The position numbers and the translations under genes were made by a program. The notes beneath the pieces are model-generated. The model made no database searches. It was not told the origin of the DNA and worked only from the letters and a program-made list of their open reading frames with translations. Shown in pieces: positions 43,583 to 64,000 of a DNA stretch of 64,000 nucleotides. Position 1 is the stretch's first letter. The number at the start of each line of letters is the position of its first letter. Source of the DNA: a virus; the IMG/VR virus record IMGVR_UViG_3300044825_001015, positions 40,845 through 104,844 of that record; one strand, 5' to 3'.

Positions 43583-43918
43583 ATGGATAACAATATTAAT
43601 AAGTCTGTATGGTCTGGTGTATTTTTCCCAGCAGACGAACCTGAGCAAGTTAGTTTACCAGCAGAAGAGCCTCAAAACGCCCCTCTTGATACAGCAGATG
43701 TTGTAGAAACCAATTTTGAAGTAGAGCGTCAAGACATTTCTGAGGATACTTCAGTAACTAATGAAGTTGAAGACACCCCTGCTATTGAAACTGTAGATGA
43801 AGTTGAAGAGCAGATAGTAGAATTGTCAGATGTTGAATCAGAACCTGTTCAGCAAACAGCGGCTACTGAAGATGTTGCAGTTGAAAATGTAGAAGTTTCA
43901 GAAACAGTTTCTGAGTAA
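43583..43918 (+). CDS. Highly acidic low-complexity protein with N-terminal KSVWSGVF motif
   Basis: E/V/T-rich; promoter and SD upstream. Confidence 0.6.
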   Translation: MDNNINKSVWSGVFFPADEPEQVSLPAEEPQNAPLDTADVVETNFEVERQDISEDTSVTNEVEDTPAIETVDEVEEQIVELSDVESEPVQQTAATEDVAVENVEVSETVSE

Positions 43919-52799: not shown

Positions 52800-52912
52800 A
52801 ATTTCCATGATTTTTTTATGTCCGTCGTAATGTCTAATTAATTTTTTATATCGGCGCTATCTCCGAAATTTCTAAAAATTTCCATGATTTTTTATAAGCC
52901 GTCGTAATATGC

Positions 52913-52960
52913 TTGACAAATTTTATTGTCGGTGCCGCCACCGAAATCGGTGGCTGTCAA
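52913..52960. repeat. 48-bp dyad element, copy 1
   Basis: TTGACA-N10-TCGGTG-N4-CACCGA-N10-TGTCAA. Confidence 0.85.
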
Positions 52961-52961
52961 G

Positions 52962-53210
52962 TCACAACATGAATGCAATCCAATTGTCAATCCAATCCTG
53001 CTGGGTCCAATTGTCAATATTGGCATATCGCTCTGGGGTGAACTGCTTGCGAATCTCCTCCGCCTCAGGGTACTTGGAAGGAATAGAGAATCCCCAAGGT
53101 GTGAAGTACCCATCCTCTGCGATAGCCTGCTTCACCTGGGCGGTGAAGTTGGGCTTATCAAACTCAAGGATACCCATGTCAATCGCTGCAACTGCTTCAT
53201 CAAATGTCAT
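52962..53210 (-). CDS. Hypothetical protein (leaderless)
   Basis: ATG 6 nt after the -10 of promoter 53217-53238. Confidence 0.6.
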   Translation of the reverse strand: MTFDEAVAAIDMGILEFDKPNFTAQVKQAIAEDGYFTPWGFSIPSKYPEAEEIRKQFTPERYANIDNWTQQDWIDNWIAFML

Positions 53211-53216
53211 ATCCAT

Positions 53217-53238
53217 ACTATACACCCGCCCTCTGACA
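53217..53238 (-). promoter_or_regulatory. PafBC/RecA-NDp-type promoter
   Basis: TGTCAG-AGGGCGGGTG-TATAGT. Confidence 0.75.
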
Positions 53239-53396
53239 TTAGTCAAGAAAAGTGGTCTGGCTGCTAGGAATTTCAAGGCTCCTGCTTTAGTTAACGACTA
53301 GGGCGTCCCCTGATAGCCGCACCAGACCTTCTACCTTACCTACTCCAATATTGTATCACTTCAACTTTTTGTACGTCAAGCCCTGGCTTGATGGGT

Positions 53397-53753
53397 CTAC
53401 TCAGCCCCTCGCTGAACGAACGACGGAGCATATCGGCTTGTATAGTCTTCGATAGTTCCTCGGGCAGTTGTACCACCAGCCGCAAATCCACGACCAGGGT
53501 TGTAGTCGGGTACTTCTTCATAGTCATTCACCACCTCATGCATGATACGAGAGGCCATCTCACCAATCACGGGATCGCCAATGCCATAGCGCCAGTCAAT
53601 CTCGTTGAGCATGAACCATCCAATCGCAACCTTGTGCAACATAGCCGCAGGATATCCACCAGCAGTCTTTACTAGATTAGCAAACTGATATGGATTATAG
53701 AGCCTGTTATTTGCTGCCTCCACAAATGCTTTCGCTGCCTTTTCCTCTATCAT
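53397..53753 (-). CDS. Hypothetical protein
   Basis: GAAAGGA SD. Confidence 0.6.
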   Translation of the reverse strand: MIEEKAAKAFVEAANNRLYNPYQFANLVKTAGGYPAAMLHKVAIGWFMLNEIDWRYGIGDPVIGEMASRIMHEVVNDYEEVPDYNPGRGFAAGGTTARGTIEDYTSRYAPSFVQRGAE

Positions 53754-53779
53754 GATATCCTTTCGATGGGGAGTCTACA

Positions 53780-54142
53780 TTATACACGAACGAGCGGGTC
53801 TTTGCTAGTGGCAATGGAAGAAGGAGCCTTTACTCCCCCCTCGCATGTGCAGTACATCATGTGGTAATGACAATCAAAACATGTAACAAACTCTATAACG
53901 TATCCCTCTTTACTACGACCCTTGAGTTTCTTAGGCTTGCGAACAGCAGTCATAGGTGGAACATGTGGACGGATAACAGCAGGCTCTACCTCAGGTAGAC
54001 CATCGTCACGCTTTCCTGTACGTCCTTCTAGTTTCCCGCCCTCTTCTTGATAATCCTTCAGAGCAGTCATCATCTCAGCAGTAAAGCGACCACGCTCTCC
54101 TACTGTGAATCCCAGACTACGCAGATACTCACGCTTGTCCAT
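53780..54142 (-). CDS. Lsr2-like DNA-binding-domain protein with C-terminal Cys cluster
   Basis: REYLRSLGFTVGERGRFTAE resembles the Lsr2 C-terminal domain with its RGR AT-hook. Confidence 0.7.
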   Translation of the reverse strand: MDKREYLRSLGFTVGERGRFTAEMMTALKDYQEEGGKLEGRTGKRDDGLPEVEPAVIRPHVPPMTAVRKPKKLKGRSKEGYVIEFVTCFDCHYHMMYCTCEGGVKAPSSIATSKDPLVRV

Positions 54143-56379
54143 TCCATACTCCGTTCTCTGTCATGATCTCTACTTGTACCTCTAGGTTGTATTCAGCCTG
54201 AGTATAGAATCTGAAAGCAACATCAACCATTCTAAGCAGGGCAGCATCATTCAACATAGCCGCCTCGTTCTCGTATGTCCTAAGATGGTCATGATCTTCT
54301 GAGTGTAGTTCCCACACATACCCGCCAGGACCACAGTCAATCTCTATAAACTTTAGCATTAGATATCCATCCTTAGTTGTCCATCGACCTGATTAGCCCA
54401 CTCCGCTTCCTCGCGCTCGTAGTCTGCCCACAACTCATCTGGCTCTGAGCAATCCCAGAAGAGCGCATCCCACAGACGCAACTCATCGCACATTGAGCGA
54501 CCTGTCACCACCGCACCGTTAGGCAACTCATACTTACGATCAAACACAGTCTCATCAGAAAACTCGTAGTCCCAGTTATCTTGCATGTCTGCCCAACCTA
54601 GGATGTATGGATCGGAGTCACGCTGTAACTCATCGAATATCTCCTGCACGCGCAACTGAATGTCATGCGGAATCGGCGGGTAGAAGTTAGCAGTAAGGTG
54701 CATGGTGATATCTGTCATTAGTCCTCCACAGGATCGACACTAACGGAATCTTGGATATAGCCGCCCTCAACAAGAATGGCGTCGGAATGATTATACTTGC
54801 CATTCCAGAAGTTCGCAAGAACATCGTCAAGCGTGTCTGCCTCTACGAACAAGTCCCACCAGTCCTCGGTTTGATAACTAATCTTATACTTAGGCATAAG
54901 GAACCTCCAATGGAAGAACGAACCAGTCACCATCACCATGATTAGATCCATAGTCAATGGCTTCATCCCTAGAAACGAACGGTCCATGAAGAGTATGACC
55001 ATCGAAAGCATTACCAAATGCAACTATGTATTTCACAGTTCCTCCCCATTCTCATCCTGATAGATAATTCCATAGGAATCACCAAAGTCCTCATACACCC
55101 AATCTTCGATATACGCCAGCACTTCCTCTAGGGTAGGCTCATATGGCTCGGCATTATCATCACCACGGCTGCCATAATCGTTCATAGCCTGCAATGATTC
55201 TACAATCTGGACAACATCATAGGTAACAGTCTTGATAGCGTTGATACGTTCAGGAAGAGACATTATTACCCACCATCCTACCCGACACCACTATCCCAGG
55301 AGCAGGCCAGGTATCGACAATGTATCCAAGAAGTCTAACTAGAGACTCATCAAGTGCTGCCGTGATAGGTGTATCATCATCTGGCGCTTCCCAGCGATCA
55401 GGTAGCCTATCGTCAGAAATAAAGATATTACCATCTGGGAAGTAGGCGGCGGTATCAGATTCTACCCCCCACCTCTGAGTATCTGTGTCATAGAATACAA
55501 CATAGTGCAACTGCATGATTACTCCTTATCCTGCGTAGGGCTGGGTCCAGTCCCAGGCATACTCCTGGAGAATCTCTTCTACCCTAGCAATAGCCTCGCT
55601 CTCATCATCAGCGTCAATGATGAAACTAACATTCTGAACGTCTACTGAAATATCCATCAGTCCTCCATGAAGTTGTAGTAGTAGCGAGTATAGCCAATCG
55701 GCTCGGAAGAGTCAAGAGGGTCAAGGGTGGGATGGGAAGAATACTGCAACGTCCCCTTCACTCCATCACTCTTACGCTTGACAATACACAGATCATAGAA
55801 GAATCCTAGAACCTCATACTGCTCTAGCATCTGATCTTTGGTAAGCATATTACTGGCTAGCATCAGTCCTCTGCCTCCTCATATGTCATGAGATACAAAC
55901 TCTGCTCTCTTACCACCCACACCAAACCCTCGCGGGTGTTGGTGTTGAGATATTCTAGTGCATCCTCATAGGTCCAGTCAATAGCATCCAGAATTTCATA
56001 GTGCCTATCATCATCTACCTCATCAGAGGATAGCCAATTCATATCAGCAATAAACTGATCCCACTCCAACTCAAATCCATAGTCGTGAGCCAATTCGATA
56101 ACTAGGCACATGAATTCTAGGTTTGATCTATGGCTACCGTCAATGTAGCAACCAGTCTCAGTCTTCATCTGGGATTACATCCTCCACGGTGGGAACAATA
56201 GAAATGTTGTTCATGATCTCGTTATACAACTCAGGATCACGACCACTAGCAAGGTCGTCAGCCAACTGCTCCAACTCCTCGCGGGTCATGTCATCATATG
56301 CCTCATACTCATACTCAAAATCCATGAAATGACCAGTTCCCTCATAGATGAGTTCTACTGAGAATGTGATAGTAGCCAT
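54129..56379 (-). CDS. Operon of small acidic hypothetical early proteins (54129-54359, 54359-54718, 54718-54897, 55033-55263, 55250-55516, 55657-55863, 55863-56168, 56158-56379)
   Basis: Overlapping stop/start codons and GGAG SDs. Confidence 0.55.
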
Positions 56380-56648
56380 TCTAACTCCAGTCGTCTGGGC
56401 GGAATCCGCCTGATGTAAGCCAATTATCCAATGCAAAGAAGGCATCTGTCAAGAAATCCATAGCCTCTTCTGCATCAACTTCCAAAGTTCCCCACTCCTC
56501 CCAACGTGCAAGCGCGACGCGGATAGAAGAAAGAGTTTCATTCGGGTCCATATTCTCTCCTTTCTAGGTATATCTAGTAAAGCCTATGCGAGAGTATATG
56601 TCAAGCAGGTTTTCTGTGATTTCCGTGATTTTTTCGTAACCGTCGTAA

Positions 56649-56696
56649 TTGACATTAGGTAGATTCGGTGCTGCCACCGATTTGCGGATTTGTCAA
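56649..56696. repeat. 48-bp dyad element, copy 2
   Basis: TTGACA-N10-TCGGTG-CTGC-CACCGA-N10-TGTCAA. Confidence 0.85.
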
Positions 56697-56697
56697 G

Positions 56698-56765
56698 CCC
56701 CACCCCAGAGAATCGAACTCTGCCCGACAGGTTTTGGAGGCCCGTCTGCGCCCAGCGCGGGTGGA
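56698..56765 (-). tRNA. trnW: Atypical 68-nt tRNA-Trp (CCA) with a minimal D arm
   Basis: TCCACCC/GGGTGGG, D arm GCGC-TGG-GCGC, loop CT-CCA-AA, T arm CAGAG-TTCGATT-CTCTG, discriminator G. Confidence 0.7.
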
Positions 56766-56768
56766 TCG

Positions 56769-56870
56769 GAGCAGTTTATCCATTGTCCAATCTAGGATTC
56801 CCTCATGCTCAGGAGGTTTTCGGCCCCATGCCTGCCGATGGCAGGGCAGTTTTACATCATGCCCAGGATG
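56769..56870 (-). ncRNA. Two tandem H-type pseudoknot motifs (56844-56870 and 56769-56816)
   Basis: CATC-CTGGGCAT-GATG-TAAAAC-TGCCC and CCTC-CTGAGCAT-GAGG-..-TAAAC-TGCTC. Confidence 0.7.
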
Positions 56871-56875
56871 TTTGA

Positions 56876-57880
56876 TTACGCGAAGGCGATTTCCTTGACC
56901 GCCTTCAGGATGCGACCCTTCTCCGCATTGGTGACAGGATCGAAACCGCTAGCGGCTGCTGCAACATTCTCAGCACCCCGCTCACCACGGCCCTTGCGGA
57001 ACCAGTCCAGACGCTCCGTGAGAGCATTGAACGCACCCCACGCGGTGCCTGCGATCATGTTAGTGGTGTCGGAAGAGTAAATCTCCTCCAGCAGATCGAC
57101 CTTAGTCTCCCACTTCTTGACAGCACCCTTGGCATCCTTGTCGGGACGCGGGTAGACAGCCTCAACAATGGCATCAAACTTAGCCTTGGTAATCTCCTTG
57201 GCAATAAGAGCCTGAGCCTCCTTATCGAAGGTGTCAAGGTACTGATTGGCGAGAGAAAGAGCCTCGCGTGCAGCCTGAACCTTACCACCCACGGTCTGCG
57301 TGTGGCGAATCTTGAAGGACTGCTTCACACCCTGAAGAGCCATGTTCAGAGTGTTCTGGCACACCACGCGAACGGGAGTGATGGAAGCCTGCACAGCAGT
57401 AGAACCATCATGCGAGGTGTGGACGAGAAGGTAGGACTTCACAACATCCGACACACCATTGGGGTCAAGGACAGTCTCACGCTCCAGCGCAAGCGAACCG
57501 AACACGACACGACCCTGGCGAATAGAGCCAGCAGTCTCCCAACGACCACCGTCAAGGAGGGCGTCACCAAAGTTGAAAAGATCCTCGTTCTGAAGAACGT
57601 GGTAGCGCTCACCAACGGTAGCAAGAACGTCAGTACCCTGGTCGAATGGGTTGTCACGAAGGACCATGTAGGAAGGCGTGATCACATTGTACGCCTTGGG
57701 GTAAGGAACGGCCTCCAGGCGAACGTTCCAGTTGGACAGGTAAGCCGCATCCAGCATCTCCTGGGTGGACTTCTCCTCAAAGAACACGGTCCCAAGACCA
57801 TGCCAAGCGGGTTCGCGGAAAGAAGCAAAAGACTGCTTCTCGCCATCCCGACTAACCTCTACTGCGTGTGGCATATTCAT
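56876..57880 (-). CDS. DUF932 (phage/plasmid TIGR03299-like) protein
   Basis: PAWHGLG, WETAG, SHDGS, TPVRVVCQNT, RHT, GTAWGAFNALTE. Confidence 0.9.
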   Translation of the reverse strand: MNMPHAVEVSRDGEKQSFASFREPAWHGLGTVFFEEKSTQEMLDAAYLSNWNVRLEAVPYPKAYNVITPSYMVLRDNPFDQGTDVLATVGERYHVLQNEDLFNFGDALLDGGRWETAGSIRQGRVVFGSLALERETVLDPNGVSDVVKSYLLVHTSHDGSTAVQASITPVRVVCQNTLNMALQGVKQSFKIRHTQTVGGKVQAAREALSLANQYLDTFDKEAQALIAKEITKAKFDAIVEAVYPRPDKDAKGAVKKWETKVDLLEEIYSSDTTNMIAGTAWGAFNALTERLDWFRKGRGERGAENVAAAASGFDPVTNAEKGRILKAVKEIAFA

Positions 57881-57908
57881 CTCCTTAGTTGATCGAACTT
57901 ATGGAACT

Positions 57909-57930
57909 ACTATACACCTGGGGACTGACA
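57909..57930 (-). promoter_or_regulatory. PafBC/RecA-NDp-type promoter
   Basis: TGTCAG-TCCCCAGGTG-TATAGT. Confidence 0.75.
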
Positions 57931-57980
57931 CTCGCAAGACTTTTTCTAAAAAATCCGTGAAAAATATTCTCTCGTCGTAA

Positions 57981-58013
57981 TTGACTTTACTAGGATTTCG
58001 GGGCAGGCACCGA
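57981..58013. repeat. Dyad element, copy 3 (partial)
   Basis: TTGACT-N11-TCGGGG-CAGG-CACCGA. Confidence 0.7.
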
Positions 58014-58018
58014 AAATA

Positions 58019-58046
58019 TGAGCAGTTTTTCGTCATGCTCAGGACG
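58019..58046 (-). ncRNA. H-type pseudoknot motif
   Basis: CGTC-CTGAGCAT-GACG-AAAAAC-TGCTCA. Confidence 0.7.
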
Positions 58047-58147
58047 CCATTAATGGTTGCAATGCTGGGGAATATAGGCGCTATTGGAAGTCCATGAGTC
58101 CCTAGGTTGACTTTCTCTTCCCTCACCCTATGTTGCCATACTCTGCG

Positions 58148-58220
58148 TACCCCCAACGGGATTCGAACCCGTGCTACCGCCTTGAAAGGGCGGCGTCCTT
58201 GGCCTCTAGACGATGGGGGC
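58148..58220 (-). tRNA. trnE: tRNA-Glu (UUC)
   Basis: GCCCCCA/TGGGGGT, CCGCC-CTTTCAA-GGCGG. Confidence 0.92.
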
Positions 58221-58228
58221 TATCTGGT

Positions 58229-58654
58229 CTAACTCTCAGACCAGTCAATCTCCATGCGATCCTCTGAGAAGTCTGCCTCTACATCAGCAGAGTAGTAGTG
58301 CGACTCAAGGCTAGCACTCAGATCATTCTCAAGATTATCCATGTCGTAGTTCAGAGGAACACTAACGGTCCCGCTGAATGTGACGGTCACAGTAACATCG
58401 TAGTCCTTGCTGATGCTAAGACCAAAGATATCGACAAGGCTCTGAGAAATCTCCTCGTCAATGTAGTCATACTGCTCCTTGACGTACTGCTCAAGGTTGT
58501 CGATCATCATCTGACGATCATGTGCCCTGGCCTGCCAGAAATCACGATCAGCAGTCATACTAGCAAGGGCGTTGTTCAGTTGATCAATCTTAGTCTCCAA
58601 CTCCTGCATGGTGGGCGGGAATGGATGAATGTCAGTCATGCTAGGGTCAATCAT
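58229..58654 (-). CDS. Hypothetical coiled-coil/acidic protein
   Basis: GGAGG SD; host-like codon usage. Confidence 0.65.
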   Translation of the reverse strand: MIDPSMTDIHPFPPTMQELETKIDQLNNALASMTADRDFWQARAHDRQMMIDNLEQYVKEQYDYIDEEISQSLVDIFGLSISKDYDVTVTVTFSGTVSVPLNYDMDNLENDLSASLESHYYSADVEADFSEDRMEIDWSES

Positions 58655-58655
58655 G

Positions 58656-59045
58656 TTACACCTCCATCAATGTCTTAGCGTACTTATTGATGAACTCGTT
58701 CAGGGAGAACGTGACAATGATATCAGTCAGCACTCCTGACTTCCAATCATAGTCATACAGAGTTACGGTCTTAAATGCAAAGTCAAAGACAGGAACCTTA
58801 TGCTCGTTGTCTGCAAGGTAGTTCACAGTAACACCCCAGCCAAGATCACCCTGCCATGCATCACCAACCAACTGCGAGATGATAATACGATTTGCATAAG
58901 CCTGATCGTCAATGCGTCCAGCATCCTGCACATGGTCAAGAGCATTAGCAAACCTAGCAAGCATACCCTCGCCAGCCCAATGTCCGTAGATGAAGATGGT
59001 GTTGCCATCGACCTGTCGAAGTCCGAAATTAGCGCGGTCGCCCAT
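58656..59045 (-). CDS. Hypothetical protein (MGDRANFG...)
   Basis: GAAAGG SD before ATG 59045; promoter at 59075-59096. Confidence 0.65.
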   Translation of the reverse strand: MGDRANFGLRQVDGNTIFIYGHWAGEGMLARFANALDHVQDAGRIDDQAYANRIIISQLVGDAWQGDLGWGVTVNYLADNEHKVPVFDFAFKTVTLYDYDWKSGVLTDIIVTFSLNEFINKYAKTLMEV

Positions 59046-59074
59046 GGTAGTGCCTTTCTGTAGTAGGTAGGGAA

Positions 59075-59096
59075 ACTCTATCATGTAGGTCTGACA
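59075..59096 (-). promoter_or_regulatory. PafBC/RecA-NDp-type promoter that also has a TTGACA -35
   Basis: TTGACAAC-TGTCAG-ACCTACATGA-TAGAGT. Confidence 0.75.
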
Positions 59097-59105
59097 GTTG
59101 TCAAG

Positions 59106-59188
59106 TGCCCCAAGCGGGAGTCGAACCCGCACTCCGTTATGGAACTTGATTTTGAGTCAAGCGTGTCTGCCAATTCCACCATCGGGGC
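59106..59188 (-). tRNA. trnL: tRNA-Leu (CAA)
   Basis: GCCCCGA/TTGGGGC, CTTGA-CTCAAAA-TCAAG, long variable arm. Confidence 0.9.
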
Positions 59189-59191
59189 GTG

Positions 59192-59222
59192 TGGGCAGTT
59201 TTAGCGAACATGCCCAGGTTCG
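59192..59222 (-). ncRNA. H-type pseudoknot motif directly 5' of tRNA-Leu
   Basis: CGAAC-CTGGGCAT-GTTCG-CTAAAAC-TGCCCA. Confidence 0.7.
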
Positions 59223-59232
59223 TCCCAACTAA

Positions 59233-59608
59233 TCAGCGACCAGCGGGGATGCCATGCTTCAGAGTCTCCAACGCGGGGGTGGAGTCAATGAACTTGCCAT
59301 TCTGACGAGTGACAATACGAGTCTGGACACCATAACGGGTGTTCCAAGTCTCAAGGTAGGTGAACTTAGGGGTCTTGCTCTTCTTGCTTGCCATGTTTTC
59401 TCCTTTACTAGTAAACGGGTAGTGCATCAACTACGGCAACAATCTTACCATTTGCCGCTCTTGCAATCAAGTCTGCGCGGGACTGATTATGAATCGTGAT
59501 ATCAAAATGCGTATCATCATAGATATCAAATTCCACGCCATGCTTGATTGCTTCAAATACCCCCGCGCCCGTGGATGAGCGGGAGGGAGTACGGATAGTA
59601 GCAATCAT
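59233..59608 (-). CDS. Two small hypothetical genes (59233-59394, 59408-59608)
   Basis: SDs present; downstream of promoter 59635-59656. Confidence 0.55.
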
Positions 59609-59634
59609 GTTACCCTCTTTTCTGTTGTAGTACT

Positions 59635-59656
59635 ACTATAGCCTAGGGGTCAGACA
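59635..59656 (-). promoter_or_regulatory. PafBC/RecA-NDp-type promoter (variant)
   Basis: TGTCTG-ACCCCTAGGC-TATAGT. Confidence 0.7.
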
Positions 59657-59707
59657 CTCACAAGAAAAAATTTCTATGATTTCTGTGATTTTTCTTAAAA
59701 CTCGTAA

Positions 59708-59756
59708 TTGACATATGTGAGAATCGGTGCTGGCACCGCCCTGACAGATTTGTCAA
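59708..59756. repeat. Dyad element, copy 4
   Basis: TTGACA-N10-TCGGTG-CTGG-CACCGC-N11-TGTCAA. Confidence 0.85.
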
Positions 59757-59901
59757 GGAGATACGCTCTAGTATTCCTGACTTTCTACTTGGTCAAGGAT
59801 ATCGCAGTATAGCGAACCTAGAATGTATCCTTCATTCATCAAGTCCCGCAGGCACATGAGTACCTGATCCCAATCAGCACGCGGCATCTCTACCTTTACC
59901 A

Positions 59902-60132
59902 CTACACACCCGCCAATCTCTTACGCTCTACACCCGTCATGCCACCATAGACATGAGGCTCGAAATCCTCGTTGCGAATCGCAAATGCGAGGCAATCCTG
60001 CACAACGCTGCACGTTGCACAAATCGACTTAGCCTTTTCGATGCGCGAGGCAACACCTGAGAGAAACAGGTTGCTATCCGCATCCTTGCACGCTGCCCTA
60101 TCCTGCCACATTCTGATCCTTCTTCCACTCAC
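59902..60132 (-). CDS. whiB: WhiB-family transcription factor (early region)
   Basis: WQDRAAC..F..AKSICATCSV..C..HVYGGMTGVER. Confidence 0.88.
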   Translation of the reverse strand: MSGRRIRMWQDRAACKDADSNLFLSGVASRIEKAKSICATCSVVQDCLAFAIRNEDFEPHVYGGMTGVERKRLAGV

Positions 60133-60521
60133 GCGCTTCCTTGCGCTTGATTAGTCTAGTCTGCATCTTTCGCGGTGCTGACGGGCAGCAGCCGTAGTAG
60201 CAATTCATCCGATGCTTGCCGACATTACGGCGGGATCGAATCAAAAAGGCACCTCCTCATAGCGCACCCCATCGACAATCAGAGTGCCGTCATCCAGATA
60301 CATGCACCGCGCATAGTCGAATGCATGGTCGCCCAGCATGTAGTAGTTATCCAGCCAAGCCTTCTCAAACTCCACCGTGGTCATCATGCTACCACCTCCA
60401 CAATCTCAACAGTCTGACGGGGCGATGCCCAAAAGTCTCGGATAGTCTCAGCACCCTCGCGGGTGGCGACCGTGGAAAAGAACTGCCCATCTACGAATAC
60501 CTTGTATGTTGTCATGGCTTC

Positions 60522-60848
60522 ACCTTATCAGAGGGGTCTGACACCCAAGGGTTGGGGTCAAGGTCAAGGGTGGCCTCCAAGCGGAGGAAGTTCTCATACA
60601 GTTCTTCTAGGTTCATGCGTATACCTTATCATCTAGGTCTGACAGGCAATCACAGTCATATGAAACCTTGAGGTAGTCCTCAAAGGCTTCCACGGTCATG
60701 ATGCCCTTGTATTCATGGCACAGTCCGCACCACTTGGCATCCAGGGAAATCTCGTTATCGCAAAAGCAGCAAACGAGGTGGGAATGGAGAGTGTTGTTCA
60801 TTTCTAGCCTTTCTTTCTATGCCCTAAGGCTATCATGAGGGACTGACA
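60522..60848 (-). promoter_or_regulatory. Three tandem PafBC/RecA-NDp-type promoters (60522-60543, 60623-60644, 60827-60848)
   Basis: TGTCAG-N10-TAAGGT twice, TGTCAG-N10-TAGCCT once; each heads a tiny ORF. Confidence 0.72.
60613..60801 (-). CDS. Small Zn-finger protein
   Basis: CCFC..CGLC; GAAAGG SD. Confidence 0.55.
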   Translation of the reverse strand: MNNTLHSHLVCCFCDNEISLDAKWCGLCHEYKGIMTVEAFEDYLKVSYDCDCLSDLDDKVYA

Positions 60849-60914
60849 TTCACCGAATCCAAAATATATACAAATCGGACAACATTTCTGTGATGTATTT
60901 CACTTCGTCGTAAC

Positions 60915-60963
60915 TTGACAAATTCAAATTTCGGTGGCGGCCCCGAATTTCACTTGTTGTCAA
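60915..60963. repeat. Dyad element, copy 5
   Basis: TTGACA-N10-TCGGTG-GCGG-CCCCGA-N11-TGTCAA. Confidence 0.85.
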
Positions 60964-61144
60964 GTACCTTGTATATGACATAGATCACGGCGACTACGGG
61001 AAGTACGAGGCATGACATTCCCAGCACTAACATAGCGGTACTAAAAATGTCAAGCGCCTGCGAGTCTACAATATTATGCTCTGCCATTTCACACCCCCAC
61101 AAAGTCGCGCAGCATCTCCCGAAAGTTCTCTAGCGTGATATCGT

Positions 61145-61690
61145 TCATGCTGCACCCCCTCGCACGATAATCCAGATGAGAGCCTGCGCGGTGCGCGGTG
61201 TGATATCAAACTCCGCAGCGACAGTAGTGACAGCCTCAGAAAGTTCGCGGTATTGCGTCTTATTGGGCGAGTCAGTATCCATGCCAGCGGCTCGCATCAT
61301 CCATACGTCAATGACAACCGCGTCAGTATCGCCAGCGATAGCGCGAGCGAAAGCGTTAGTCTTTAGTCCGTTCAACGCATCAAATCCCGCGACCATGGAA
61401 GCCTGAGCCATGCGGAGATTATTGCCCAAGCCCTTAGGGGTCTGACCAAGCGAGAACGCGATAGCCTTAGCGACGTTAGTGGACCAACGCTCACGCGGCG
61501 AGAATGCTGCGACGATGGATGCGCCTACCTCTAGGGTAGTGTCAAGGTTACGGGCGACTTCCTCTGCAACCTCCTCCGCATCACGGTACCAGACGGATGC
61601 TTGCTCCATCTGCGCGAGGGTGGCGGTCATGATAATGGAACGGAAGGTGTCAGTAGCGGTAGGGGCGAGAGTATCTGTCATCGTTGTCAT
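61145..61690 (-). CDS. Helix-hairpin-helix DNA-glycosylase-like protein (leaderless)
   Basis: WY..AAFSPR..W..N; GLKT.AF; VVIDVWM; AQALIW. Confidence 0.6.
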   Translation of the reverse strand: MTTMTDTLAPTATDTFRSIIMTATLAQMEQASVWYRDAEEVAEEVARNLDTTLEVGASIVAAFSPRERWSTNVAKAIAFSLGQTPKGLGNNLRMAQASMVAGFDALNGLKTNAFARAIAGDTDAVVIDVWMMRAAGMDTDSPNKTQYRELSEAVTTVAAEFDITPRTAQALIWIIVRGGAA

Positions 61691-61696
61691 GGAATG

Positions 61697-61907
61697 ATCC
61701 TAGCACTAGGGTCCGACATTGGGAAGGGGTAATTAGTCATTTTCGGTAACGAAACGGTTACGATGCTTAGGCTTGCGAGAATACTTAGCCTTATTCCGAT
61801 GGGGCGCGGCAATATTAGAGCGGCGCAACTCCAAGGTACGCTGAATCTCATCACGGGTACGCTTACGATTCTTGATCATGGGAAAATACTAGCACACCCC
61901 TCCGACA
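61697..61907 (-). promoter_or_regulatory. Two PafBC/RecA-NDp-type promoters (61697-61718, 61886-61907)
   Basis: TGTCGG-N10-TAGGAT and TGTCGG-N10-TAGTAT; an ATG lies 6 nt downstream of each. Confidence 0.78.
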
Positions 61908-61947
61908 ATGGGAAGAAATCTCAGGAAAAATATTTTCGTGTCGTAAC

Positions 61948-61995
61948 TTGACAAACTTGGATATCGGTGGCGGCACCGAATTTAGGATTTGTCAA
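61948..61995. repeat. Dyad element, copy 6
   Basis: TTGACA-N10-TCGGTG-GCGG-CACCGA-N10-TGTCAA. Confidence 0.85.
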
Positions 61996-62350
61996 GTCTA
62001 TTTCTAATAGAGTTAGCAAGAATCTCTAGCGAGTATTCTATATCCTCTAGAATTTCAAAGTCTGCTGGATTCTCTGCAGATGCCCACATGCGCTTGCAAC
62101 GTGTGAGCAATTCTTGAATGTCATTCCATTGCATTGTGAGATTTATATCGAATGGACGACGCTCTATCACCTTGACGTTACTCACCGATCCACCTCGCAA
62201 CTGCCGCGCAGAAATCTTCAAACGTTGTCTCCTTATCGAATCCAAACGTGAAGCAGTCTACCTCGTTGTTTCCATTGTCATAGACATTGACAGTATGCGA
62301 ACCGTTCCATACATACGTCCATCCTGAGCGGGAGTCATGAAGTTCTAGCA

Positions 62351-62623
62351 TTACTCCACCGCCCGAAAGTTCTCCATGAACTGTGCAAAGTAGATCAGCG
62401 GAACGTACGGGTACACCTCATGCGAGTAGAGTGCGGCAAACTCTGGCAGAGGCTCAGTAACCCACTCATCATTCTTGAAGAATGCCAGTTCGACAGAATG
62501 CGGGAAGCGTGCGTATGCTCCATCTCCGATTGCAATGGATACCTCATCGGCCATGGGGTGAGCGATCTTGGCCCTGGCGTTGATGTAGTGCCTATCACCA
62601 TATGTTTCAGCGCGGGTAATCAT
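62351..62623 (-). CDS. Hypothetical protein
   Basis: SVELA..VYPYVP; SD present. Confidence 0.55.
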   Translation of the reverse strand: MITRAETYGDRHYINARAKIAHPMADEVSIAIGDGAYARFPHSVELAFFKNDEWVTEPLPEFAALYSHEVYPYVPLIYFAQFMENFRAVE

Positions 62624-62748
62624 TAGAAGCCTTCCTCTATTCCACCAACGATTGCCATAGCAGTAAGGATACCGCTAATAATGACGAATGACAAGACATG
62701 CTGTGCGAATGTTCTCATGATTCCTCCCTCTCGCATGTGCATGATCCA

Positions 62749-62770
62749 AAGTTACCACGGGCGTCTGACA
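62749..62770 (-). promoter_or_regulatory. PafBC/RecA-NDp-type promoter
   Basis: TGTCAG-ACGCCCGTGG-TAACTT; ATG 6 nt downstream. Confidence 0.7.
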
Positions 62771-62806
62771 GTAGAAGCCTGCCACACTTAGCGCATGTGC
62801 GGAACA

Positions 62807-63088
62807 CTAGAATTCCAATCCCATCGAAGCCAGTCCTGTGATCAGTTGGGCCTGGATCACAGGGTCATTCTTGTCCTCAGGCTTGAGCCACTTTACCATG
62901 GCAGACCCACGGGACTGCATGGTATTACCCTGCGTGTCGGTTACGAGGAACCAGTCATCCTCTAGCGGTTCGATGATGAACCACCGAGTATGGAGCATCC
63001 CCTTAGCGTTCTCTCCAAGGATACCCTCCACAAATGGTGGGCACTCTCGCATGGGAGTGGTGACGATACGATCTACTGATTCGATCAT
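62807..63088 (-). CDS. Hypothetical protein
   Basis: GAAAGG SD before MIESVD. Confidence 0.5.
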   Translation of the reverse strand: MIESVDRIVTTPMRECPPFVEGILGENAKGMLHTRWFIIEPLEDDWFLVTDTQGNTMQSRGSAMVKWLKPEDKNDPVIQAQLITGLASMGLEF

Positions 63089-63214
63089 GGCCTGACCGCC
63101 TTTCCATTGACGAGGACCCATTCCCCGCAGCCATAGCAAATCCAACGAGGGGCGGCGGTACCAAGACGGATGCTGCCCTTGCAGTTCTCACACGGTGTCT
63201 TTCTCATGTCTCCG

Positions 63215-63236
63215 ACTCTACACTAGGGGGCCGACA
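63215..63236 (-). promoter_or_regulatory. PafBC/RecA-NDp-type promoter
   Basis: TGTCGG-CCCCCTAGTG-TAGAGT; ATG 7 nt downstream. Confidence 0.75.
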
Positions 63237-63313
63237 ATAGTCAAATCCAAAATGCATACAAATCGGACATTTTCAAAGTTTTTTTTCTGGGAAAAAATCC
63301 AAGGTTTCGTAAC

Positions 63314-63345
63314 TTGACATTTTATGATTTCGGTGGCGGCACCGA
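63314..63345. repeat. Dyad element, copy 7 (partial)
   Basis: TTGACA-N10-TCGGTG-GCGG-CACCGA. Confidence 0.8.
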
Positions 63346-63423
63346 AAAATTCCATGAAATTTCTGTGACAGTAGTAATACCGTCGTAAGACTTTTTTATA
63401 TCTAATTATTCGGTCACAGGTGT

Positions 63424-63439
63424 TCGAACTGTTGTTCGA
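63424..63439. promoter_or_regulatory. LexA (SOS/Cheo) box
   Basis: TCGAAC-TGTT-GTTCGA, a perfect match to the actinobacterial TCGAAC-N4-GTTCGA. Confidence 0.7.
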
Positions 63440-63449
63440 ACCCTGCCGC

Positions 63450-63468
63450 TTAGGTTAGGCTGACCTAA
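63450..63468. promoter_or_regulatory. IdeR/DtxR iron box
   Basis: TTAGGTTAGGCTGACCTAA versus consensus TTAGGTTAGGCTAACCTAA (18/19). Confidence 0.7.
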
Positions 63469-64000
63469 GCGCACGCGCCAGACGGATTAGGTCACGGTAG
63501 TATTCTACTCGCGCCGCATCCTGTCGGGATACCGCGTCCTGCCCGATACGGGCGACCAATGCGCGGCGTTCACGTTGCGCCATAGTCTGACGCGGCGGGA
63601 TGCCACGGTAGGGATAGGCGTTCACCTACGCCCCCTAGCACTCTTAGCGTACTCCAAGACTCTCATCTCAGAGCCACAGTCGCAGATAGCGCGACCAGCG
63701 CGAGACCCACGACCATTCACGCGGTCCCAGACCACGTTGGTTACGACATGACCAACGCGCATGAACGCGCCGTCCCTAGTGGTACACGCCCCATCGAAGG
63801 ACGAGACTGCATACCAATTTCTCTTGCTATTCATGCGGACACCTCCTGCAGCACGCGACGCTTGGACTCTACGGCGAAGCGACCTGTGAGGCTACGGTTC
63901 GCGTAGCGAAGGTAGGTCATGGCCTCGCCATGGGTAATCCAACGAGTGACGGGCACACGCCCATAGATCGAAGCGTGATCCAAGCGGACTACGCGGTATC

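Follow-up and report, generated by a model that had tools for sequence, protein, structure and literature searches.

PafBC (RecA-NDp) promoters of actinobacteria follow the published motif tGTCgg(N10)tA(N3)T, in which the GTC triplet lies at -27 to -25 and no -35 hexamer is present (PMC8635444). The triplet is contacted by R46 and R50 of PafB, and the same study likens PafBC sigma adaptation to the sigma appropriation of phage T4 (PMC8635444). In the middle promoters of T4, a MotA box at -30, used together with AsiA, lies nearer than a -35 hexamer and replaces the contact made by sigma region 4. Arrays of early promoters in terminal repeats are known from the large lytic phages SPO1 and T5. 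Streptomyces BE-cluster phages such as NootNoot have in their terminal repeat an arm of small genes with a strong promoter per gene and a DUF932 gene, to which the arm described here is syntenic. In the literature, we found no paper connecting phage promoters with PafBC; PMC12848934 cites a 2025 paper in ACS Infect Dis on pafBC and mycobacteriophage resistance.

The promoters described here share with PafBC promoters the TGTC(A/G)G element, the 10-nt spacing, the TANNNT hexamer, a GTC at about -27 to -25 and frequent leaderless starts. Many of the phage copies also lack a -35, and some keep one. The earlier note had taken TGTCGG-N10-TANNNT for a PafBC site, and the phage geometry does equal the published motif (PMC8635444). 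Because the layout matches PafBC sites, the phage may tap the damage sensor of its host.

The phage and its minus-strand arm

The source record, IMGVR_UViG_3300044825_001015, is the 105-kb genome, with 37% GC, of a phage that infects an uncultured actinobacterium; one stretch of 64,000 nt (the window) was the starting point of the analysis. Identity to Streptomyces BE/BK phages is 55-57% for the DnaE-like polymerase, 59-61% for the portal and 55-57% for the DUF932 protein, and the arm is bordered by ThyX and HNH genes, as in NootNoot. By core genes and synteny, we place the phage as Stanwilliamsviridae-like (Streptomyces BE/BK clusters), with a GC content and a host that differ. Its clade is uncultured, comes from freshwater and wastewater and has only about 55-60% protein identity to Streptomyces phages; M. 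smegmatis, in which the earlier note wanted the promoters tested, is not its host. A nucleotide search of the phage collection gave no match, and contigs from wastewater runs labelled 'RNA-Seq cDNA' contain relatives at 90-95%. The phage GMP-reductase had no close relative among genome contigs and is 40-47% identical to actinobacterial homologues. The 16S genes from three genomes reached at most 92.5% identity to any named locus.

Beyond the assembly junction, the minus-strand arm (Table 1) extends as far as about genome position 500. It contains many small ORFs, and most of its proteins belong to no known family. The early region in the terminal repeat of the BE-cluster phages is its syntenic counterpart, and the genes of the arm are probably early, a timing drawn solely from that synteny.

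Table 1. Promoters and other features of the minus-strand arm (window coordinates).
Feature	Position	Strand	Element and -10	-35	Start, product or remark
Minus-strand arm	52900..64000	-			GC about 47-54%; rest of genome 32-44%
P63236	63215..63236	-	TGTCGG-N10-TAGAGT	TTGACT at 18 nt	ATG 7 nt past -10; 40-aa ORF 63085-63207
P62770	62749..62770	-	TGTCAG-N10-TAACTT; TGn	none	ATG 6 nt past -10; 39-aa ORF
P61907	61886..61907	-	TGTCGG-N10-TAGTAT; TGn	none	leaderless 48-aa ORF 61733-61879
P61718	61697..61718	-	TGTCGG-N10-TAGGAT; TGn	none	leaderless DUF7178 gene 61145-61690
P60848	60827..60848	-	TGTCAG-N10-TAGCCT; TGn	none	leader 25 nt; 62-aa ORF 60613-60801
P60644	60623..60644	-	TGTCAG-N10-TAAGGT; TGn	none	within 3' end of preceding ORF; leaderless 34-aa ORF
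P60543	60522..60543	-	TGTCAG-N10-TAAGGT; TGn	none	leaderless 43-aa ORF 60384-60515
P59656	59635..59656	-	TGTCTG-N10-TATAGT (variant)	TTGTGA at 17 nt	leader 26 nt; 66-aa ORF 59408-59608
P59096	59075..59096	-	TGTCAG-N10-TAGAGT; TGn	TTGACA at 18 nt	adjoins tRNA-Leu
P59096 product	58656..59045	-			129-aa ORF behind 29-nt leader
P57930	57909..57930	-	TGTCAG-N10-TATAGT	TTGCGA at 17 nt	SD leader, then DUF932 gene
P53238	53217..53238	-	TGTCAG-N10-TATAGT	TTGACT at 18 nt	ATG in frame both at 0 and at 6 nt; ORF reaching 52962
WhiB-family gene	59905..60108	-			marks an actinobacterial host; genome has two such genes
tRNA-Leu(CAA)	59105..59188	-			directly upstream of P59096
tRNA-Glu	58147..58220				in minus-strand arm
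DUF932 protein gene	56876..57880	-			marker used to gather related loci; gene 2/3 in BE-phage terminal repeat
tRNA-Trp	56697..56765				in minus-strand arm

An array of promoters with an element at -26

TGTCRG-N10-TANNNT had 10 exact matches in the window, every one on the minus strand between 53217 and 63236; 0.90 were expected from the shuffled window, and at least 10 were reached in none of 100 shuffles. With the TGTCTG variant of P59656, the total is 11, the number that the earlier note had listed. Two further sites lie just beyond the window, across the assembly junction: one occupies genome 167-188, and the other, at about genome 439, has N11 spacing. With them, the array counts about 13 promoters in 11 kb.

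The upstream element, with its GTC triplet (tGTCgg type), is present at about -28 to -23 in all 11 window sites, and R followed by G occupies positions 5-6 in 10 of them, as in host regulons. Seven sites have a TGn extended -10 (TGnTANNNT), and at three more a TG abuts the hexamer. A TTGNNN -35 at 17-18 nt is kept in five copies, as had been claimed for some, and is missing from the other six. The start codon follows the -10 by 6-7 nt at seven sites (P63236, P62770, P61907, P61718, P60644, P60543 and P53238), and leaders of 25-29 nt with a Shine-Dalgarno sequence are found at P60848, P59656, P59096 and P57930, exactly the split into leaderless starts and short leaders that had been described. 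Downstream of P57930, the DUF932 gene is followed by densely packed small genes to about 53400.

Scanning of the minus arm never revealed the upstream element without a -10 at the fixed distance. In plus-arm intergenic regions, we saw extended -10 elements of the TGnTATAAT type and no TGTC element, in agreement with what the earlier note had said of plus-arm gene starts. The strict geometry, the family-wide conservation and the fixed distances to start codons support the proposal that the TGTCRG-N10-TANNNT sites are real promoters, and these make up a class of their own that is restricted to the minus arm.

Conservation across related phage loci

The family sample consisted of 80 related IMG/VR phage loci collected by the DUF932 marker. 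In these relatives, the motif occurred 491 times on the gene strand and 38 times on the opposite strand, versus 6 and 5 for the reversed control, and a spacing of N10 (686) prevailed over N9 (74) and N11 (86). The TGTC is invariant at all four of its positions family-wide (272 versus at most 9 for any substitution), position 5 is A or G in 83% of the family sites, and position 6 is G in 78%. The distance from the -10 to the start is bimodal: 76 of 442 sites form a sharp leaderless peak at 6-7 nt, and the other maximum lies at 21-40 nt. An ORF follows all but nine of the 442 sites. The TGn positions are T in 63% and G in 68%, an extended -10 being present in about two thirds of the sites, and TTG stands at the -35 position in about 40-50%.

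The promoter orthologous to P57930 is conserved in 66 unique relatives, and in the alignment its TGTCRG and -10 stand as conserved islands. In some lineages it reads TGTCGGTGG-N7-TATGAT, the classical RecA-NDp word, as it also does in locus L051. Positions 7-10 are usually (A/T)CCC, and individual sublineages are internally uniform at positions 7-11, with an ACCCC, TGGGT or AGGGT flavour. Some sublineages are relaxed at positions 5-6, as in L043 with TG, CT, TT or CC. A sister sublineage (L024-L029) is without the element and has a canonical TTGAC(T/A) -35, which indicates that the element substitutes for the -35; by this comparison of sequences, the -26 element is what takes the place of the -35 hexamer in these promoters.

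Five of the window promoters lie in an intergenic cassette, about 130 nt long, that is repeated in the arm, and the common word might have no function and merely stem from recent duplication of one such cassette. In the family, however, TGTC and its spacing are constant at hundreds of sites whose flanks and spacers have drifted apart, in phages with only about 64% protein identity, and we consider the duplication reading close to refuted and very improbable.

The element could also be an operator for a phage repressor of the early genes, or the site of some other core-overlapping regulator, with the -10 or extended -10 sufficing for transcription. Most sites do have an extended -10, actinobacterial SigA promoters often need no -35, and gp71, the repressor of L5, is an asymmetric single-site repressor in actinophages. 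However, the spacing to the -10 is exact to the nucleotide across 555 diverged sites, as is typical of an element that contacts RNAP; the element is never found away from a -10, replaces the -35 between lineages and is a 6-bp half-site without dyad symmetry. An operator therefore seems to us decidedly unlikely, though less so than the duplication reading.

Several cultured phages with a DUF932 gene (Jada, BillNye, Eaglehorse, Cooper, BarretLemon, AnarQue and Dropshot) have no such promoter arrays. The promoters of NootNoot have a full TTGNNN -35 plus TGTCCY-N10-TAGACT (9 versus 0.96 expected). TGTCCY is not enriched in Streptomyces-like genomes (34 versus 35), so that a TGTC common to the wider family is not necessarily a PafBC site. 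The NootNoot word, being non-host-like and accompanied by full -35 hexamers, was dropped as support for PafBC.

PafBC and its motif in actinobacterial genomes

TGTCRG-N10-TANNNT exceeds its reversed control in most of 301 Actinomycetia genomes, for example 76 versus 6 in Streptomyces and 53 versus 1 in Microbacterium. In actinobacterial genomes, about 1007 sites match the phage flavour TGTCRG(A/T)CC, which is thereby enriched over a reversed control of mostly 0 per genome; it is the majority flavour in some host-type genomes (19 of 23 sites in one of them, G173) and precedes leaderless genes such as pup. TGTCRGACC is a form native to host genomes. In 15 streamlined genomes, recA has GTC-N12-TANNNT, with TGTCAG in 10 and TGTCGG in four. 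A tandem pafBC-like WYL pair was found in 17 of 21 streamlined Actinomycetia genomes, which serve as a proxy for the phage's own host. Nearly all sampled Actinomycetia, streamlined ones included, have the motif and tandem WYL genes of the PafBC-like type.

Some other host reader might be at work, whether a different transcription factor, an alternative principal-like sigma or an inherent bias of the host's RNAP towards this spacer sequence. The phage consensus leaves room for it, being stricter than the mycobacterial motif (T1 invariant, A preferred at position 5, CCC next). Against such a reader, both pup and recA, the latter being the defining RecA-NDp/PafBC promoter, are among the enriched host sites that have this word at this spacing. 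No other actinobacterial factor is known to us to bind a TGTCRG word at -26, and none is described in the literature that we examined. Another host reader appears unlikely, if somewhat less so than an operator.

Search for a phage-encoded reader

As an alternative to PafBC, the earlier note had raised a phage-encoded activator outside the window. The whole phage genome gave no match to WYL, sigma-70 r2/r4, HTH_11 or DeoR-HTH (PafB-like HTH), nor to the MotA and AsiA profiles (PF09114 and PF09010). The absence of recognisable reader homologues weakens that alternative, and what is left of it is an activator or adaptor of an unrecognised family, MotA/AsiA-like in action, that is made from the -35-keeping copies or delivered with the virion. 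The five -35-keeping promoters could indeed fire first, most arm proteins lack a known family, and the uniform flavours of the sublineages would be expected if the sites were co-evolving with a phage protein. On the other hand, the same flavours are native to actinobacterial genomes, and no arm gene is common to the motif-bearing loci and missing from the motif-less ones. The best candidate for a motif-tracking gene, that of the 129-aa protein behind P59096, was rejected on finding a weak homologue in motif-less loci. We rate a phage-encoded reader as improbable, on a par with another host reader.

A weak Sigma70_r4_2-like HTH (13.7 bits, under the cut-off) was noticed in the plus arm.

The likeness to T4 middle promoters is limited in the same respect: a box nearer than -35 would again stand in for the sigma region 4 contact, but this phage has no homologue of MotA or AsiA, a host protein would act as the adaptor, and the genes seem to be early and not middle ones.

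Discussion

The arm may be an early, host-takeover-like region of a lytic actinophage, served by 11 + 2 promoters. Each combines a SigA-type TANNNT -10, usually preceded by TGn, with a TGTC(A/G)G exactly 10 nt upstream that replaces the -35. The likeliest reader would be the host PafBC heterodimer, whose mode of action, sigma adaptation, puts it between region 4 of SigA and the promoter DNA, in contact with the GTC. On this reading, the phage would have an ssDNA-activated, LexA-independent damage regulator recruit or boost its early transcription, with a putative ssDNA-driven feedback, and the five copies with a TTGNNN -35 could fire without PafBC. Taken as a whole, reading by host PafBC is the best explanation we have for these sequences, and we give it just under an even chance.

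Several features count against PafBC. A TGn extended -10 can free a promoter from the need for an activator, and, among the PafBC-type sites listed from actinobacterial genomes, it is generally absent. The TTG -35 hexamers, the (A/T)CCC of the phage where actinobacterial recA sites have TGG after the hexamer, and the relaxed positions 5-6 of L043 weigh in the same direction. It would also be strange for a phage to entrust the genes that it expresses first to an activator that requires ssDNA. Compared with PafBC promoters, the phage has an array of some 13 copies in a lytic genome with T1 invariant, and its dependence on PafBC is putative.

A fuller account is that a large uncultured clade of lytic actinophages swapped its early -35 hexamers for the -26 element of host PafBC, with a first wave of transcription driven by PafBC, flavours (ACCC, TGGG, AGGG) tuned to the sites of the respective hosts, and sigma adaptation put to use by a virus, which would be a first. 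We hold this account tentatively, as somewhat less probable than its being wrong. It would share with SOS-coupled prophage induction, in which LexA-like or CI repressors are cleaved, the tie between phage expression and a host DNA-damage signal; whereas that induction is RecA-mediated derepression in temperate phages, the phage here would use direct activation via a LexA-independent WYL regulator in a lytic setting.

Even without PafBC, the array defines a new and sharply specified promoter class, in which a 6-bp box at -26 stands for the -35 at hundreds of phage sites. If PafBC reads these sites, a stress regulator seen as a guardian of the host genome would be the entry point for a viral early programme, a host-factor counterpart to T4 sigma appropriation. 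Promoter flavour could then link uncultured phages to their actinobacterial hosts by sequence, and the sites would offer compact, damage-inducible, leaderless promoters for actinobacterial genetics.

Promoter-like sites of the minus arm

The motif TGTCRG-N10-TANNNT, a box at about -26 followed by a SigA-type -10 element, was found ten times in the window, each time on the minus strand and within 53217-63236, where shuffled sequence gave an expectation of 0.90; none of 100 shuffles of the window attained ten matches. Together with a TGTCTG variant, these are the 11 minus-strand sites with 10-nt spacing that the earlier note had listed, and two more copies lie just past the assembly junction. 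The described leader types were also recovered, with a start codon 6-7 nt past the -10 at seven sites and a 25-29 nt leader containing a Shine-Dalgarno sequence at the other four. A -35 element, said to persist in some copies, is kept as TTGNNN at 17-18 nt in five sites, and in seven the -10 is extended by TGn. The motif had not been noticed at plus-arm gene starts, which were described as using extended -10 elements, and the intergenic regions of that arm indeed contain AT-rich TGnTATAAT elements without a TGTC box. Within the minus arm the upstream box is always paired with its -10; in the genome outside the arm it occurs only at chance frequency and without one. The box could alternatively be an operator for early shut-off, which we consider quite unlikely.

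A cassette of ~130 nt, containing the hairpin TTCGGTGCCGCCACCGAA, the box TGTCAAGTTACGA and the stretch CACAGAAAT, is repeated in the intergenic regions upstream of five of the promoters. Related-phage contigs from four wastewater runs all end at window position 59672, just upstream of the promoter P59656, and some of them join other arm positions there, a sign of possible mosaic junctions located at these cassettes.

Coordinates of features in the window and in one cultured phage
Feature	Position	Strand	Remarks
Minus arm	~genome position 500, through the junction, to ~window 52,900	-	GC 47-54%
TGTCTG variant copy	59635-59656	-	Confirmed real
DUF932 gene	56876-57880	-	
Intergenic cassette	63236-63420	-	
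Intergenic cassette	61907-62010	-	
Intergenic cassette	60848-60965	-	
Intergenic cassette	59656-59790	-	
Intergenic cassette	57930-58040	-	
Weak Sigma70_r4_2-like HTH	43781-43894	+	In a 131-aa frame; 13.7 bits, below cut-off
First site in Microbacterium phage Dropshot	7561-7582 of L254		57 nt upstream of the SSB gene

The phage genome and its probable early region

The virus record is 104,844 bp long, of which the window spans bases 40845-104844, and we regard the assembly as circular because its ends overlap by 127 bp. The minus arm is set off by a sharp composition break from the rest of the genome, where GC content is 32-44%; among relatives, the GC content of the corresponding region ranges from 34% to 50%. 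The phage encodes two WhiB proteins, a DnaE-like polymerase, DnaB, a primase, a RecA-like protein and ThyX, and 11 tRNA genes lie in the window. Among cultured phages it is closest to the Streptomyces-infecting Stanwilliamsviridae of the BE and BK clusters, sharing only 55-61% protein identity with them, and a nucleotide search of the phage collection returned no match. Most proteins encoded in the arm are small and belong to no known family. The 334-aa DUF932 protein corresponds to gene 2/3 of the BE-phage long terminal repeat, and the ThyX and HNH genes on either side of the arm have the same arrangement in phage NootNoot. Judging from this synteny, the arm is probably the counterpart of the BE-phage early terminal-repeat region.

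Conservation in related phages

A DUF932 protein search of IMG/VR gave at least 596 related places, from which 80 loci were kept. In these loci the RG form of the motif occurred 491 times on the gene strand and 38 times on the opposite strand (reversed control, 6 and 5), and TGTC-N12-TANNNT was found 686 times, compared with 74 and 86 for spacings one nucleotide shorter and longer. The consensus of 555 non-identical sites was aaaTGTCAG(a/t)CCCnnnTGnTAnaaT. With any one of T, G, T or C replaced, at most nine sites were counted, compared with 272 for the unchanged word. The distance between the -10 and the start of the ORF that follows had two modes, one sharp at 6-7 nt (76 of 442 sites) and one broader at 21-40 nt; all but nine sites were followed by an ORF. 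At the orthologous DUF932 promoter, TGTCRG and the -10 formed conserved islands in 66 unique sequences. The strand and spacing counts, the invariance of TGTC, the start distances and the DUF932 islands therefore establish a real promoter class under selection. The original observation thus stands as a whole and extends far wider than first seen, to a promoter class of the entire family.

Positions 7-11 have a flavour that is uniform across all promoters of a sublineage (ACCCC, TGGGT or AGGGT; L043, L051, L027 and L023 versus the window), which implies that a dozen promoters per genome would have changed in concert. That the box is shared through mere ancestry is very improbable in our estimation. 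Some sublineages carry the classical PafBC word: L051 has it as TGTC(A/C)GTGGGT, and several loci have it as TGTCGGTGG in their DUF932 promoter.

The box as an apparent substitute for a -35 element

In this family-wide class the -26 box appears to replace the -35. The 555-site consensus has just a weak TTG at that position, and the family-wide matrix showed no strong conservation upstream of it. One sublineage of 50% GC (L024-L029) has no box and uses cTTGAC(T/A)-N17-TGnTAGnnT. The promoters of Streptomyces phage NootNoot differ in having a full TTGNNN -35 followed by TGTCCY-N10-TAGACT (nine matches, 0.96 expected). In its terminal repeat (L009, 1-10,000, minus strand) almost every small gene has its own promoter built of TTGNNN, c, TGTCCY, N10 and TAGACT, with a conserved leader containing ATCGAAAGGGGG downstream.

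PafBC-type sites in host genomes

PafBC is a host regulator of the LexA-independent DNA-damage response, activated by ssDNA. Its in vivo motif is tGTCgg(N10)tA(N3)T, with no -35; the -26 element is recognised by the HTH of PafB, which reads both guanines of the GTC triplet, and the partner PafC makes contact with region 4 of SigA (PMC8635444). The likeness of the phage sites to PafBC-dependent promoters, proposed in the earlier note, is borne out in both word and spacing.

Measured as motif count versus reversed-control count, the motif was enriched in most of 301 sampled Actinomycetia, including Streptomyces tritici (76 v 6), Microbacterium yannicii (53 v 1), a Mycobacterium (43 v 18) and a Glaciihabitans MAG (26 v 8); enrichment was absent from an Ilumatobacteraceae MAG (4 v 13). 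The S. tritici sites (G001, which includes locus L102) are of the type TGTCAGTGG-N7-TANNNT, a Streptomyces flavour with A at position 5. A study of Streptomyces LexA described the M. smegmatis PafBC motif as seemingly not conserved in S. venezuelae (PMC9380542).

The sequence after the hexamer is lineage-specific: Mycobacterium and Streptomyces sites continue with TGG, those of Microbacterium mostly with A or C and then G. The phage flavour TGTCRG(A/T)CC-N7-TANNNT was strongly enriched class-wide, with ~1007 matches and a reversed control of mostly 0 per genome; it makes up most of the sites in some genomes (19 of 23 in G173) and precedes leaderless genes in named genomes (L215-L225), such as pup in S. 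tritici (L220). These class-wide tallies take in eight unpublished genomes (G267, G011, G040, G034, G047, G036, G028 and G019), which individually support no separate claim. Seventeen of 21 streamlined genomes (1.0-1.5 Mb) encode a tandem WYL pair of 300-345 aa each. Upstream of recA, GTC-N12-TANNNT was present in all 15 streamlined genomes compared (L232-L246), as TGTCAG in ten and TGTCGG in four, and a LexA-type box TCGAACAGATGTTCG was present in 14, in most directly after the PafBC-type site.

Which factor reads the box

A search of the whole phage genome for a WYL-domain gene, suggested earlier, was run and found none, nor did it find sigma-70 region 2 or 4, HTH_11, a DeoR-type HTH, MotA or AsiA. 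The sole sigma-like stretch was the sub-cut-off r4_2-like HTH of the plus arm, possibly a middle or late regulator. Arm gene content is highly variable among relatives, with DUF932 as the sole general gene, and among genes within 10 kb either side in related loci the sole candidate for tracking the motif was a 129-aa protein, which has a weak homologue in motif-less loci. A phage-encoded adaptor of unknown family acting on the box is, in our assessment, unlikely.

Several features count against PafBC. Most phage sites have an extended -10, which the listed host sites generally do not, and TTG stands at the -35 position in nearly half of the family sites. An extended -10 can be enough by itself at SigA promoters. 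At the positions where candidate hosts carry TGG in their recA sites, the phage favours (A/T)CCC, and positions 5-6 of the box are relaxed in sublineage L043. Recognition by a different host factor, or a preference intrinsic to RNAP, is improbable.

The TGTC common to cultured relatives is no evidence for PafBC, because Streptomyces-like genomes show no enrichment of TGTCCY, the NootNoot word (34 v 35). Promoter arrays of this kind were absent from the sampled cultured actinophages that encode a DUF932 homologue. Dropshot carries TGTCGGTGC-N7-TAAGAT upstream of its SSB gene and a second site, TGTCGGTGG, within a RuvC-like gene; each of the two may be an isolated PafBC-type promoter of this cultured phage. 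Literature searches pairing PafBC or RecA-NDp with phage turned up no report of phage promoters with this motif. A 2025 study reportedly linked pafBC to mycobacteriophage resistance.

Since word, spacing and flavour resemble native host sites and no homologue of a known kind of reader was recognised in the phage, the best single explanation, if a tentative one, is that host PafBC may read the -26 box.
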